From Eledone cirrhosa (Eukaryota), in the NCBI GenBank assembly GCA_964016885.1, contig OZ024750.1, positions 53,754,001-53,818,000 of the forward strand: DNA of 64,000 nucleotides, read 5' to 3'. The notes under the pieces are model-generated. The model saw only the letters and a list, made by a program, of their open reading frames with translations. It did no database searches and was not told the origin of the DNA. Made by a program: the position numbers and the translations under genes. Below are positions 2,079 to 45,360 of the stretch, in pieces. The first letter of the stretch is position 1, and each line of letters begins with the position of its first letter.

Positions 2079-2518
2079 GCAGAGGTTATATTTAATTTGT
2101 TGGGACTCAACAAGCTTAAACATTTTTATAACTGATATAAAGCACTCAACAAGTTAGTGGAGTAAATATACAATATATTAATAAATGGAAACTATATTTA
2201 TAAAAACATAATTATTTTATTATATATATTTCAAGGGCAACCAAGGTAGTTTATGGTGCGCTTTCATCAGATAAAATACAGATTTGTTTTATAAAAAAAT
2301 ATTGACATACCCGGAAAAAAGACAACCTCAACGGTTGAACAGCGAATTTCAACTGTTGAGGTTGTCTTTTTTTCCGGGTATGTCAATATTTATTTATAAA
2401 ACAAATCTGTATTTTATCTGATGAAAGCGCACCATAAACTACCTTGGTTGCCCTTGAAATATATATAATAAAATAATTATGGTTTTATAAATATAGTTTC
2501 CATTTATTAATATATTGT
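2079..2518 (-). mobile_element. Penelope-like pLTR fold-back (element D): about 170-bp inverted repeat plus about 90-nt unique tail
   Basis: Arms 2170-2339 and 2348-2518 are near-perfect reverse complements with an 8-nt loop. Each arm has a hammerhead motif. Flanked by (TA)n/(TG)n. Confidence 0.8.
2410..2475 (+). ncRNA. Type I hammerhead ribozyme (mirror copy about 2213-2278 on -)
   Basis: TATTTTAT CTGATGA [AAG.GCA.CCA...TGG.TGC.CTT] GAAA TATATA TA / ATAAAATA: canonical core, 8-bp stem I, self-complementary stem III. Confidence 0.8.
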
Positions 2519-2544
2519 GTGTGTGTATATATATATATATATAT

Positions 2545-2883
2545 GGAGGCACGTGGCTTGGTGGTTAGAGCATTGGCCTTGCAATCGAAAGGTTGTGAGT
2601 TGTTTGTGTTGTGATGTGTTGTTTCCTTGAGCAAGAGACTTTATTTCACATTGTTTTGAGGTCCCTATCATTCCACTCCAAAGTGGTCGTGGAGGTGCCA
2701 CGGCAAAAAAGCACCCAGCACTCACTGGTGTTAGGAAGGGCATCCAGCTGTAGAAATCAAGCCAGCATCAGTTCCCGTCCCACCTTTGCAAGCAGGGAAA
2801 AGTGGATGTAAAATGATGATGATGATTGCAAGCGTGGAACATGGACGTTAAACGATGATGATGGTGATGATGATGATGATGAT
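2545..2883 (+). mobile_element. tRNA-derived SINE with CORE-like body and RTE-derived 3' end
   Basis: A-box-like TGGCTTGGTGG, CCTTGAGCAAGA body, GGTGTTAGGAAGGGCATCCAGCTGTAGAA shared with the RTE 3' UTR, and (GAT)n tails. Confidence 0.8.
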
Positions 2884-3929
2884 ACATATATTTATATATG
2901 TATATATATATATGTGTATCTATGAACTGTGTGTGTGTTTTTCTGTGACTCACATTACTGAGCTGCATTGAAGCAAAGAATCTCTCTCTCTCTCTCTCTC
3001 TCTCTCTCTCCCTCTCTCTCTCTCTCCCTCTCTCTCAAGTATATCAGGTCAAATGAAAATAACAAATAGACAGACAATTGGACACATAAATAAATATACA
3101 CATTCATGTGTGTGTGTATGTATATATATACACACATACATTTCACATACAGACATATATATATACATTTCACATACACACACACATATATATATATATA
3201 CATACATTTCACATACACACATGTATATATATATACATTTCACATACACACATATATATACATACATTAGACACTCCTTAAACAACTACATTCTGTGACA
3301 GGCAACTATTTCGGCTTCAGTCAATGTCAAATTAAATCTCTCACACGGATATATATATATATATATATATATACACACACACACACACACACACACACAC
3401 ACACATACACAGTTTTTTCACTCTGTTTTGAAATTTTAGTATTTAAAAGAAACACAAGTGACATCATATTATCACATATATGACATACATACACATGTAT
3501 ATATATATATATATATATGTGTGTGCACACACACACTATGAGGGTTTTCACTCAGTAATGTATTGAAATTTAAGTGTTTAAGCCACAAATATACAGGTAC
3601 ACGCACATACAACACATATATAAATATATTCAGTTATATATACATACATGTATATACACCAATTTCAGTGTATGTTATATAATATTATAATCAATCAGTA
3701 CCTCATGAACACTGGATCATATTTTCATGGTGTTAACTACTTCAATGGCTGTAAATACAAATAGGTTTGGTGAGAGAGGACCTCTGGAGTTTTTCTTCCT
3801 CTCATTTTGTTGTCCGATGTGTGGAGTATACGATTTAATGGTACACATTTTTCTTTATATTTTTTCACTCTACTTTTTCTGCCCCTGTCCACTCTCCTCT
3901 ATCTTTCTATTTCTTCTTTAATTTCTCTT

Positions 3930-4065
3930 CTATTTTCTGATAAAGGGCTAGCATTCAAAATATTAACTCTCTTTTCCTACTATATCAAGTGTAAAACTAA
4001 TATATTTCTTCATTGTACTGTTATTTGTTTTTTTTATTTCTCTTTATTTTCTGCATACATATATC
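3930..4065 (+). mobile_element. Decayed copy of the hammerhead-bearing pLTR family at 53.86 kb
   Basis: TTCTGATAAAGGGCTAGCATTCAAAATATTAACTCTC...TTCCTACTATATCAAGTGT aligns with TTCTGATGAAGGACTAGCGTCCGAAACGTTAAGACCCTC...TTCCTGCTATTTCAAGCGT. Confidence 0.6.
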
Positions 4066-4094
4066 ATCTTGAGTTGATATCCTGCCCATGTTAG

Positions 4095-4345
4095 CTTCAC
4101 CTTTCATTCTTACGGGGTCGCTGAAACAAAGTGCTAGTAACGTACTGGGATCCATTTAATCAACTGTCATCTCCCCCAAAAGTGTTGGTCTCACAACCAG
4201 GGATTGGCAGTATCGTTAGAGGGTCGGACGCTATGCTTTGCAGCATAGAGTTACGCCCCTTTATGATCTGAGTTCAAATCCCGCCGAGGTTAACTTTGCC
4301 TTTCATCCTTACGGGGTCGATAAAATAAAGTACCAGCAATTACTA
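4095..4345 (+). mobile_element. Two fragments of SINE family 2 (Meta-core-like)
   Basis: GCCTTTCATCCTTACGGGGTCGATAAAATAAAGTACCAG core. Homologous to 13606-13798. Confidence 0.7.
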
Positions 4346-42562: not shown

Positions 42563-42660
42563 TACACATACAAATATATGTATATATATATACACACGTA
42601 TACAAATATATATATACATATATATATATATATACATATACAAATATATATATATATATA

Positions 42661-43523
42661 TTAAAGAGTTAAACAAGATTCAATGAGTACATCAAAGAAT
42701 AAGTTCTACAGTAGATTGGAAGCACTCTACTAGAAAAAGTATTTTCCAGAGTTATTAATATTAAAATATAAATATTAATAAAATAGATGTACTTTTGATC
42801 AATTAAATTTTAATATACATATTTCAGAGGTACAACAGTACGTCCTCATCAGACAAAATATGATACATGACATACACTGAGATGTTAAATGGTTAATATT
42901 TATACCCTAATAATGAGAAAATGCGAAAACATAATAAATTCAGTAGAGAAGGTATGAGTAAGAAAAACGTTGCTTTAATGTAAGTTATAGAGATTTTAAA
43001 ATGTGGGATACTACAAATTATGATTATCGAGGAAGACGTCTCTGGAATTATTATTTTATTACAGTTTATGAAGGCAACTGATAGATGATTAAAGAGAGGG
43101 AGAGATAAAGGGGACTAATTTATGCAGAAAAAAATTTTTCCCCATAAGGACTAAGCGGTTAAGTTTCAAAATATTTAATTTATGTTATTTTAGGGTGAAG
43201 AATCAAAATTTTAAGTTTTTAAAAGTTGATGGTTATTTATATTTATTAATTTTATAGATTTTATAAATTTTTTAAATGTGTTACATTTCTAAAATTCTGA
43301 ATTTATGAAAAAACAAAATTAAAGGATTTACTAGGCCCGCGAATGAGAAATATACACTGTTGAATATCCCCTAAAATTAATCTTTAACAAAAATTACCTA
43401 TAAGGGTGTCAACATTTTCGGTATGTAAAATTTATGAAGTTCTTATTGTTAGAAATATCGGAAAATTTATTGTCAAGAAGATACATTGTCTAAAGTATAA
43501 TGATTAACGCAGAGTTTTCAGCC
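42661..43523 (-). mobile_element. Penelope-like 3' remnant with hammerhead (42807-42859) and bulged tail hairpin (42704-42735)
   Basis: On -: ATTTTGT CTGATGA GGAC-GTAC-TGTT-GTAC-CTCT GAAA TATGTA TA. Bounded by (TA)n. LWEKFF-like relic upstream. Confidence 0.6.
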
Positions 43524-44063
43524 ATATATATATATATATGTGTGCATTTATCGTAATAAATTAATATTTATTATATTAAATCAGTATATTAGTTCTACCT
43601 TCATGGGAGGAATGAAACCTAAATAATGGATATGTTATTGTACAATATATCTATATTTGCACAAACAATATATAGCGTTAAACCGAAACGGTAATTATGA
43701 TTAAGTTATTATACATTATACATAGAGATGTAAAAAACAAAATGCAGAGATATACGAAAGTAATAATATGATTTTGCTATTATACAATATACACATATTT
43801 GCAAAAAAATTAGGTATAGAGAGATATACTAAGTATTAATGAGACAGTATACTTTTGGTAAATGATAACGTTTATAATCTTATATAATAGATTCAAACAT
43901 GCAAAGGTTAAATACATACATATATATAAAGGAGTGTAAACGCATGAATGATTCACAGTTCAAAATAAGGTCCGTAAAAATTTACAGGTTGGATATTTGA
44001 ACTATATTTAAAACATAGATAGAAAAATAAAGATAGAGAAATAATGGTATAACCATGACCAGT

Positions 44064-44104
44064 CCGAGCTGAATATCCGCATAAGGTGAAACAATTGTTC
44101 TCGG
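44064..44104 (+). ncRNA. Minimal hammerhead motif with G8-to-U change
   Basis: CCGAG CTGAATA TCC-GCATAA-GGT GAAA CAATTG TT / CTCGG, with palindromic ACAATTGT stem III. Confidence 0.65.
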
Positions 44105-44206
44105 TATGGTGAGTTAACACTTCTACCAAACTCGTGCCATGGACTGAGTGCTCTACCACTACGGATATTACCTTCCAGTGTTCTACCTCTATATGTATAT
44201 ATATAT

Positions 44207-45360
44207 ATAGGAACGAGTAGGACCCCAACAGCTGAGCTCAAGCCGTTTCGAAGCCTAATTCTGGACTAAATGAAAATTTTTATCCTGGTAAATGAATAGC
44301 CGAGCTTCTCAGGGGGTAATTCTATGTATGGTAAAAGTGATTGTCACAAGGATTGGTCAAAAGTTTGTTGTTGAGACACATAATTCTATCATGGCATTTT
44401 CTGGAAGGAAGGGGTAGCTGAACTTGCCAGTAGAAGAAAGAGGGAGAGGGAGTGAGGGAAACCCAGTCGTTCTGAATTAATTTTTCGTATTAAATTTTTC
44501 ATATATATCGTACGAGCATATTTATGTAGTTTGCATTAGAATTTATGTATTGTAGCGGCACTCTTATATATCGTATTAGTATTCATTTTCGGGATTCTGA
44601 ATTCATATTTCGTATTAGTTTCGGGACTCTGAATTATTATTTTGTATTAGTTTGTTTTTTTTGTTTATTTGTTTGTTTTTTTAGTACTTGTTGACCTGTC
44701 ATTGTAAGATAGATTTGGCCGATTACTACTAATTCATAAAATTCTTTCACTGCAATCTCCTATTTAGTATCCCGCCCCACCTATTAAACTTTTCTATAGT
44801 TTAGCAGTACCAGTGAGAGATTTGATGATAGTGGTAGGGGAATAGTAACCAGAAATTGTGTTTTTGTTTTTTTTTACATTTTTAACATTCTTATTTTTCT
44901 ATTAATTTTACTCCATATAGATTTACTTATTGTTTCGACTTCCTCCCCTTCCCCCTCCCTAGTATACTTCTCTTGACCTCTTATCATTAGGATTCTGCTG
45001 TAGTTGTCACTTTCAACGCACGACTGGGTTTCCTCCACTTACTCTCCCCCTTTCTTCTACTGGCAAGTTCAGCTACCCCTTCCTTCCACAAAATGCCATG
45101 ATAGAATTGTGTGTCTCAACAACAAACTTTTGACCAATCCTTGTGACAATCACTTTTACCATATATGGAATTACCCCCTGAGAAGCTCGGCTATTCATTT
45201 ACCAGGATAAAAATGTTCATTTAGTCCAGAATTAGCCGTAAAACGGCTTGAGCTCAGCCGTCGGGGTCCTACTCATTCCTATTACCCACTCTACTACCCT
45301 AAGTATTGAGTACTTTGGTGCATTATGGTCCATCTGGTTCCTTACCACATTTCCTTTGTT
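44207..45360 (+). mobile_element. Penelope-like fold-back (element C): about 264-bp diverged arms, 549-bp spacer, about 78-nt tail
   Basis: 44207-44470 is the reverse complement of 45020-45282 with scattered mismatches. Variant hammerheads at 45173-45267 (+) and 44222-44317 (-). Confidence 0.75.

Follow-up and report, generated by a model that had tools for sequence, protein, structure and literature searches.

Fold-back elements and their hairpins in the window

We analysed a 64,000-nt stretch of the Eledone cirrhosa genome (3.0 Gb; contig OZ024750.1, positions 53,754,001-53,818,000; hereafter the window), in which Penelope-like retrotransposons form fold-back insertions, with an inverted arm lying head to head with a second arm that continues into a 3' tail. 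A preliminary description of this DNA had reported that in four of these elements, here called families A to D, the tail opens with a small bulged hairpin. The four hairpins were found, letter for letter, at 9524-9545 (A, + strand), 34866-34886 (B, +), 45288-45311 (C, +) and 2163-2144 (D, - strand), and in all four cases the hairpin lies directly beyond the end of the inverted repeat. In addition, a second copy of the hairpin is present just past the tailed end of families A, B, C, D, F and H, before the start codon of the element. We refer to the two copies as hairpin 1 and hairpin 2.

The family A insertion (7174-9623) consists of an inverted tail-less arm running from 8480 to 7174 (-), joined head to head with a tailed arm at 8480-9623 (+), and has (TA)n at both outer ends. 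Its hairpin 1 has a lower stem of 9524-9527 paired with 9542-9545 and a bulge at 9540-9541, and a type I hammerhead ribozyme motif with a U3-A8 core lies upstream at 9422-9468 (+), mirrored at 7225-7271 (-). Family B is represented by a short fold-back insertion (34611-34930; hammerheads at 34774-34827 (+) and 34646-34699 (-), tail at 34863-34930) and by a diverged B-like copy, whose hairpin 1 had been noticed before and is indeed present, albeit on the minus strand (37610-37590; hammerhead core at 37660-37700 (-)). In family C (44210-45361), the inverted tail-less arm spans 44210-44470 (-) and the tailed arm extends to 45361 (+), with a decayed hammerhead at 45174-45266. The family D fold-back occupies 2072-2518 and carries hammerheads at 2215-2276 (-) and 2412-2473 (+). 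A hammerhead thus precedes each hairpin as described, type I by pattern in A, B and D, with an intact core in family C only in tandem copies outside the decayed window copies. The arms of the fold-backs are 93-99% identical, that is, they are imperfect copies of each other.

Two details of the earlier account required adjustment. The distances between the end of the inverted repeat and the hairpin, given as 4, 7, 5 and 6 nt, hold for A (4) and C (5) but become 3 for B and 2 for D when taken from the family, because the inverted arms in the window diverge from the family sequence near their ends. Likewise, the lower stem of 4-5 bp with a 2-nt bulge is parsed across all families as 4 bp, RCTC paired with GAGY, with a bulge of TA, TT or TC. 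Among the similar folds listed for other elements, the one at 44130-44149 (+) is a genuine variant with a 1-nt bulge and represents hairpin 1 of family G. The fold at 42735-42704, on the other hand, is only a neighbour of the true homologue, which is hairpin 1 of family F at 42752-42724 (-; hammerhead at 42808-42858 (-)), and the fold at 32230-32255 sits in a decayed family H copy (32050-32270, +) and is not a homologous hairpin.

Genome searches returned 1,376 to 4,266 candidates per family, of which we examined the best 30 loci each (20 for an element E described below); loci are numbered with the prefix L. On protein sequence, A, C and D are assigned to the Hydra clade of Penelope-like retrotransposons, and B on the start of its open reading frame (ORF). 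This clade is defined by a C-terminal GIY-YIG domain, DKT and RW(K/R) motifs, a CxCx5C linker, CxxC and CxH motifs and (TA)n targets (Craig et al. 2021, PMC8557442, in the parts available to us). The assignment follows from the match of our proteins to this definition: DKT is present in A, C, D and F-like ORFs, RWR stands where RWK is expected, and the C and A proteins, which we inspected directly, contain the CxCx5C linker as well as CxxC and CxH around a conserved E and N, and lack CCHH. Family A continues from the tail into the reverse transcriptase (RT) ORF in a read-through copy (L014); its ORF is frameshifted and its Pfam GIY-YIG match is weak (E 0.057, below the cut-off). Family C has an open ORF of 717 aa from the first Met in tandem arrays, represented on the minus strand at 1920-4070 of locus L252 (G000:C1), without a Pfam match. 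RT fragments only were recovered for D, F, G and H, and the first 11 codons only for B, whose link to Hydra is a single copy (L220) with a Hydra-type ORF start. The elements had been called unrelated; this cannot be maintained, given that the RT proteins of families A, C, D, F, G and H show pairwise identities of 37-64% over their overlapping fragments and form one clade, while their pseudo-long terminal repeats (pLTRs) share no alignable DNA except the hammerhead core. Their Penelope-like identity, in turn, was borne out by a single ORF with RT and GIY-YIG, pLTRs, hammerheads and tails.

The families also display what the available text of PMC8557442 describes for Hydra elements in general: a preference for (TA)n, a hammerhead in the pLTR, partial-tandem pLTRs, inverted 5'-truncated copies and an optional tail. 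Type I hammerheads are predicted by pattern in the pLTRs of A, B, D and F, and in tandem copies of C; in A and C, U3-A8 replaces C3-G8 of the core (9426-9432 in the window; L252), and Rfam returned no hammerhead match in the window. At a threshold of E 1e-30, over 2,000 proteins in the database give a match. Viral contigs yielded no relative, and by sequence no relative with a solved structure was found; a single-sequence structure model had a confidence score (pLDDT) of 32 and was unusable. Family C forms head-to-tail arrays of near-identical full-length units with intact ORFs and a period of ~3.54 kb (G000:C1:91476000-91487300 and C1:437199000-437211000), and looks recently active. Penelope-like families also insert into one another's flanking (TA)n, which produces clusters such as those around 44190-44210 and 45361-45394 in the window (see also L110 and L136-L137).

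Tail-less and tailed ends each lie just before a hairpin

To locate the ends of inserted copies, we took the BLAST ends of all non-tailed copies and determined their distance to the first stem base of hairpin 1; second copies were sought within 1.5 kb. The predicted sharp peak of tail-less ends upstream of the hairpin appeared, with a modal base 2-5 nt before hairpin 1 in families A to D. All eight non-tailed ends of family A lie at -4 and all 14 of family C at -5. In family B, 21/27 ends are at -3 and 26 fall within -2 to -9, and in family D 12/26 are at -2 and 17 within -2 to -9, so that 65 of the 75 non-tailed ends of A to D lie within 2-9 nt before hairpin 1. Similar values were obtained for family F (8/11 at -5) and family G (9/12 within -4 to -8). 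As an unselected check, we inspected short-read contigs from independent runs for family C and found loose ends into (TA)n at exactly the two predicted points. Among the rows listed, the best-supported of these were the tailed end, with 352 in X1 and 16 in X4, and the tail-less end, with 82 in X1 and 8 in X4; minor family C loose-end sites among the rows listed comprised two with 9 each in X4.

Beyond the tailed end of A, B, C, D, F and H, hairpin 2 follows after 3-5 nt. In family A it was seen in the read-through copy L014, 3 nt beyond the tailed end, in family F in L145 and in family H in L183 and L207, with both hairpins present in the family H copies L197 and L207. In family C it was present in 15/15 loci (L222-L236) drawn from 441 pattern matches, and in family D in most of 15 loci (L237 and sisters) drawn from 54 pattern matches. 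The read-through patterns used for B, C and D required only RCTC within 14-16 nt of the tail end, and hairpin 2 of A, F and H was found without this pattern. For family B, L220 carries a hairpin 2 with a long upper stem; an exact-pattern search for further read-through copies gave 11 matches, of which only L220 was true. The order of elements is therefore hammerhead, hairpin 1, 62-106 nt, hairpin 2 and start codon, with a spacing between the hairpins of 106 nt in A, 67 in B, 78 in C, 94 in D and 99 in F, and of 62-70 nt in six loci from other genomes (see below); an ATG follows hairpin 2 by 15-65 nt in 10/11 loci. Since tail-less copies stop before hairpin 1 and tailed copies stop before hairpin 2, the tail corresponds to the spacing of the two hairpins. 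Ordinary inserted ends never contain hairpin 2, as copying would begin upstream of it, and for this reason it could not be seen by the earlier reader. The proposal that the hairpin fixes where the second cDNA starts thus holds with respect to its tie to the tail-less end, but the hairpin is not specific to the second cDNA, given that the tailed end has one too. The hairpins of a pair vary together within a family: both A hairpins share an atypical foot, TTAA, and both I hairpins share TG. In family C the foot reads ACTT.

Family I, which was absent from the earlier list, provides the window's own read-through example. Its region (40155-40876) comprises a 521-nt direct repeat, a hammerhead core at 40438 (-) and both hairpins, and is apparently non-coding. 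Hairpin 1 is at 40667-40636 (-), and a terminal repeat copy at 40151-40355 ends 4 nt before hairpin 1. The second stem at 40593-40579 (-) is short and hairpin-2-like, lacks an upper pair in the window copy, and lies 8 nt beyond the ends of tailed copies elsewhere (L309, L071). In family C, positions 1501-2015 of L224 contain 257-nt tandem units made up of the pLTR end, both hairpins and the ORF start, possibly a retrozyme-like derivative judging from this arrangement. Non-LTR retrozymes consist of non-coding tandem units, each with a type I hammerhead. The window elements are for the most part truncated and derive from coding families; family I and the L224 units look like candidate retrozyme units.

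Element E (45394-45954), a young canonical Penelope-like fold-back with an AC-rich tail of ~40 nt, served as an internal negative control, and we confirmed that it has no hairpin. Its copies are 99% identical and contain an odd hammerhead-like core (45770-45801). The E protein has DKG, YVDD and a CCHH-type endonuclease (CxxC..H..H), in contrast to the DKT and the lack of CCHH in Hydra; it gave no BLAST match to octopus-type Hydra proteins and 20% identity to one foreign Hydra protein. The lack of the hairpin is thus explained by E belonging to another clade. None of ten extended E loci was a read-through copy.

Fold, letters and recurrence in other genomes

The common motif reads RCTC, upper stem, 2-nt bulge, GAGY, RCTY. 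In the whole genome, this pattern has 140,690 matches, compared with 4,685 for the reversed control (30-fold). We also generated 2000 dinucleotide shuffles of each tail of A to D and searched the first 12 nt. A generic fold with a 4-bp stem, 2-nt bulge and 2-bp upper stem arose in 212 (A), 99 (B), 201 (C) and 392 (D) of the 2000 shuffles, whereas the hairpin with the letters RCTC..TH GAGY arose in 10, 20, 1 and 1, respectively. The concern that shuffled tails might be equally rich in bulged hairpins is therefore justified for the generic form (5-20%) and not for the lettered form (at most 1%): a single generic hairpin is weak evidence, but the set of hairpins is not due to chance.

For covariation, we tabulated 29 hairpins, 13 from E. 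cirrhosa and 16 from foreign contigs, leaving out L288 as a close sister of L285, and counted pairs by an anchored parse because MAFFT lost the register of the 5' strand over loops of differing length. The lower pairs are G-C in 25 and A-T in 4, C-G in 29, T-A in 28 and A-T in 1, and C-G in 29; the bulge is TT in 17, TA in 6 and TC in 5, with family G as the exception. The first upper pair, which was unconstrained by our searches, is C-G in 16, T-A in 10, T-G in 2 and unpaired in 1. It is thus formed in 28/29 hairpins while switching between C-G and T-A, which is the compensatory pairing that had been predicted; 11.4 would be expected, and the maximum in 5000 column shuffles, which ignore relatedness, was 20. 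Upper pairs 1-2 include six G-U and no A-C combinations, which favours the sense strand and, most simply, RNA. The first 30 loci of the genome-wide matches, an unselected sample, contain 19 distinct inner sequences, of which 15 form at least 2 upper bp, versus 2.4 expected, and four form none. Family C hairpin variants above 10%, among the 40/50 rows listed, affect loop positions, the final base of the foot and a single C-G pair that changes to U-G. Both fold and specific letters are kept, as would be expected of a protein-binding site. Rfam matched none of the hairpins, whether in the window or in the five foreign loci searched, and gave only fold-back microRNA-type noise.

The motif recurs outside E. 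cirrhosa. Our foreign set comprised 15 contigs from metagenomes and bacterial bins that encode Hydra proteins 35-45% identical to that of family C, and which we infer to be DNA of animal hosts. Both hairpins were found in 7/8 foreign loci with sequence upstream of the start codon (L285, L286, L288, L291-L294), and four further copies of hairpin 1 in L290, L295 and L296; L289, L297, L298 and L299 stop short of a hairpin. Six foreign ends could be assigned a position, each of them 2-6 nt upstream of a hairpin, and in L294 lower pair 3 has switched from T-A to A-T. The published Hydra consensus sequences of Craig et al. carry the motif as well, unremarked in the parts of that paper available to us. 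By eye, Hydra-1_Ajap has both hairpins at its start, Hydra-2_Ajap and Hydra-2_Amil have hairpin 1 at the end, and Hydra-1_Crog contains variants of both. Motif 9-mers gave five matches in the Hydra consensus file and four in those of Naiad and Chlamys, none of these four with the full motif. Taken together, the conserved cis-signal tied to the tail-less end that had been postulated is supported by the peak of ends and by compensatory pairing.

Several observations weigh against this interpretation. The loci examined were selected for their similarity to the tailed copies of the window, as the best matches, with near-duplicates among them. Nine of the 26 family D ends lie outside 2-9 nt, at least four of them being alignment breaks in diverged sister subfamilies, and with a longer reference one inverted A copy (L008) was seen to end ~700 nt early. 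Hairpin 2 of family B is known from one locus, and for family G, with its 1-nt bulge, no hairpin 2 was found in 10 extended loci; the continuation of the family G locus L152 looks like unrelated flank. In the foreign locus L287, which reads as a 5'-truncated sister of L286, the start codon is not preceded by a hairpin, and of the six consensus sequences inspected, Hydra-1_Obim and Hydra-1_Amil give imperfect matches only. The constancy of the lower stem and foot is partly by construction, since both are in the search patterns. Several hairpins are weak on their own (dG -3.6 to -6 kcal/mol), and the minimum free energy fold of B hairpin 1 is bulge-free. Moreover, the ends of element E are equally fixed (9/12 at one base) without such a hairpin; the signal is accordingly clade-specific, and sharp ends, being a general property, prove nothing alone.

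Other repeats lie alongside these elements in the window. An ORF at 35056-37143 encodes an RT of the long interspersed nuclear element (LINE) type (Pfam RVT_1, E 4e-32) and has relatives at 32476-34383, 41182-42240, 56559-59057 and 10133-11292; one LINE-related fragment contains a PHD-like finger within the RT region. A short interspersed nuclear element (SINE) family is present at 2545-2826, 6795-7141, 46545-46891 and 60593-60934, with a tRNA-like head (Rfam tRNA, 29.3 bits, 46563-46620) and a tail common to the LINE 3' end. Among the foreign contigs, eleven with Hydra retrotransposons (L289-L299) were filed under bacterial bins and are most likely host-animal contamination.

A candidate start signal for reverse transcription

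Considering the position of both hairpins and their conservation, we think it probable that they are RNA docking sites that position the element's RT to start 2-8 nt upstream. At both outer junctions a sense copy meets the target DNA with its 3' end, so that under target-primed reverse transcription (TPRT) both would be priming sites, as is established for this class of elements and demonstrated in vitro for one Poseidon element (PMC11167929). In such a scheme, the GIY-YIG domain would nick both strands of a (TA)n target, whereupon each of the two target 3' ends would pair with a UAU, one lying directly 5' of hairpin 2 and one directly 5' of hairpin 1. RT bound at the adjacent hairpin would then prime each cDNA, perhaps as two protomers of a dimer, and two 5'-truncated cDNAs joined head to head would give a fold-back with one tail. 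Given that copies extend upstream through the hammerhead into the ORF, the RNA serving as template would have escaped cleavage and be either tandem or circular.

At some junctions, short repeats separate the element from its target. At least three CT repeats occur at 20/30 tailed and 2/12 tail-less ends of family G, one G locus having CT runs at both ends, and CA runs occur at 6/31 tailed ends of family B; no CT run was seen in A-F or E. Variable runs of this kind, (CT)n or (CA)n, separate the element end from (TA)n only in families with those letters at that place in the template (G: L152-L180; B: L031-L060). These repeats possibly reflect slippage at the priming site, a telomerase-like stutter, or may alternatively come from a choice of compound targets. 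Only tentatively do we extend the docking model to a two-headed TPRT, in which an RT dimer might grip both hairpins on one RNA, prime both strands at once and stutter in a telomerase-like manner, so that the element writes part of its flanking microsatellite. Were this so, the hairpin would be a 20-nt portable start signal for this RT on any RNA.

Two start sites have a precedent in PAc, a Poseidon element of Anolis carolinensis, for which the available text of Frangieh et al. 2024 (PMC11167929) describes RT initiation at two internal sites delimiting the tail, a need for RNA 3' of them, an AT-rich target cut on both strands, dispensable hammerhead cleavage and a predicted dimer. PAc differs from the elements studied here in that its start is described as lying inside a single AC-rich stem-loop, where homology to the target is lacking, whereas in the Hydra elements a separate hairpin lies downstream of each end, and the end usually overlaps the target by 3 nt (TAT). 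In the parts of that paper available to us no duplicated motif is described, and the sequence in its Fig. S1B lacks the RCTC/GAGY stem.

Other explanations have to be weighed against RT docking. Fixed distances would equally result if the hairpins guided the endonuclease instead of the RT, the ends being cut sites in a longer cDNA or transposition intermediate. In keeping with this, Craig et al. ascribe tails to endonuclease-mediated resolution (PMC8557442, in the parts available), and the D. virilis endonuclease needed the tail for plasmid cleavage, as reported in the available text of Frangieh et al. (PMC11167929). We nevertheless regard it as unlikely: the occurrence of G-U but not A-C pairs points to the sense strand and RNA, the template-like junction repeats fit priming better than cutting, and the sole element tested in vitro has RT start sites at both ends (PMC11167929, as far as available). 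It is similarly improbable that the hairpins mark RNA 3' ends, produced by a nuclease, pausing or termination just upstream, with the RT starting at the RNA end as in LINEs. Two fixed ends would then need no recognition by the RT, and in anole RNA-seq data read ends coincide with the start sites; however, the anole enzyme initiates internally on intact RNA in vitro (both from the parts of PMC11167929 available to us), and a motif that tracks one RT clade over many hosts agrees well with recognition by a protein of the element itself.

UAU microhomology to the (TA)n primer might also set the ends by itself, with the hairpins serving translation, packaging or hammerhead folding and lying nearby by history. 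A TAT does end 1-5 nt from the stem in 25/29 hairpins, and the position of hairpin 2 shortly before the start codon would suit such a role. Yet the compared stretch contains 11 TAT sites in A and 6 in C, of which non-tailed copies use only the one adjacent to the hairpin, so that UAU alone cannot account for the ends. In addition, the gap stays at 2-8 nt across the whole range of tail lengths, and the ends of family G are CT-rich and without TAT, with the distance to the hairpin kept. We therefore judge UAU alone to be a very unlikely explanation. That the hairpins are chance folds chosen post hoc, or products of palindrome assembly artefacts, is hardly credible despite the frequency of generic bulged hairpins in shuffled tails. 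The 30-fold enrichment, the recurrence in elements from the foreign contigs and the same ends in independent short-read contigs refute this reading, and the imperfect identity of the arms also speaks against it.

Several of these features resemble mechanisms of other retroelements. In L1 twin priming, both target strands prime cDNA and an inversion results, the second site being variable and the two cDNAs non-overlapping; in Hydra elements, by contrast, both priming sites would be internal and at constant positions, and the pLTR would be copied into each cDNA. Stringent LINEs recruit their RT through a stem-loop at the RNA 3' end. In the telomerase ribonucleoprotein, an RNA stem to which the protein binds defines an internal template, base pairing with the primer is limited to a few positions, and short repeats arise through repeated rounds of copying. 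Hydra elements would differ from it in using their own transcript as RNA, a stem 3' of the start, copying over kilobases and an endonuclease-made primer, and the likeness is by analogy alone, with neither a sequence nor a structure link found.

Of the features discussed here, tails, inverted pLTRs and hammerheads were known before, as was the use of two internal start sites. The paired hairpin, in contrast, is a real, clade-wide cis-element in a known clade that is apparently undescribed. The parts of PMC8557442 available to us, which include an octopus element, Hydra-1_Obim, give tails of 30-40 bp, compared with the 62-106 nt bounded by two hairpins here; they describe no RNA element besides the hammerhead, and the word 'hairpin' occurs 0 times in the supplement. 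A search of full-text literature, with most subscription journals outside its scope, yielded no paper on the paired hairpin, nor do the available parts of PMC4209133, PMC7229834, PMC8969392 and bioRxiv 10.64898/2026.07.22.740005 mention it.

The origin of inverted repeats and one-sided tails in Penelope-like elements is a long-standing question, and the sole in vitro system, in which two internal start sites were demonstrated, does not say what selects them. The hairpin is short, occurs once for each end and has been conserved between elements that are only ~40% alike in protein. It defines the true element ends for annotation, with ~140,000 pattern matches in this genome, and the intact ORF of family C allows a direct test of its role. 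Since Penelope-like elements are the sister RT lineage to telomerase (PMC8557442, available parts), the paired hairpin may also bear on how an internal template is recognized in that lineage.

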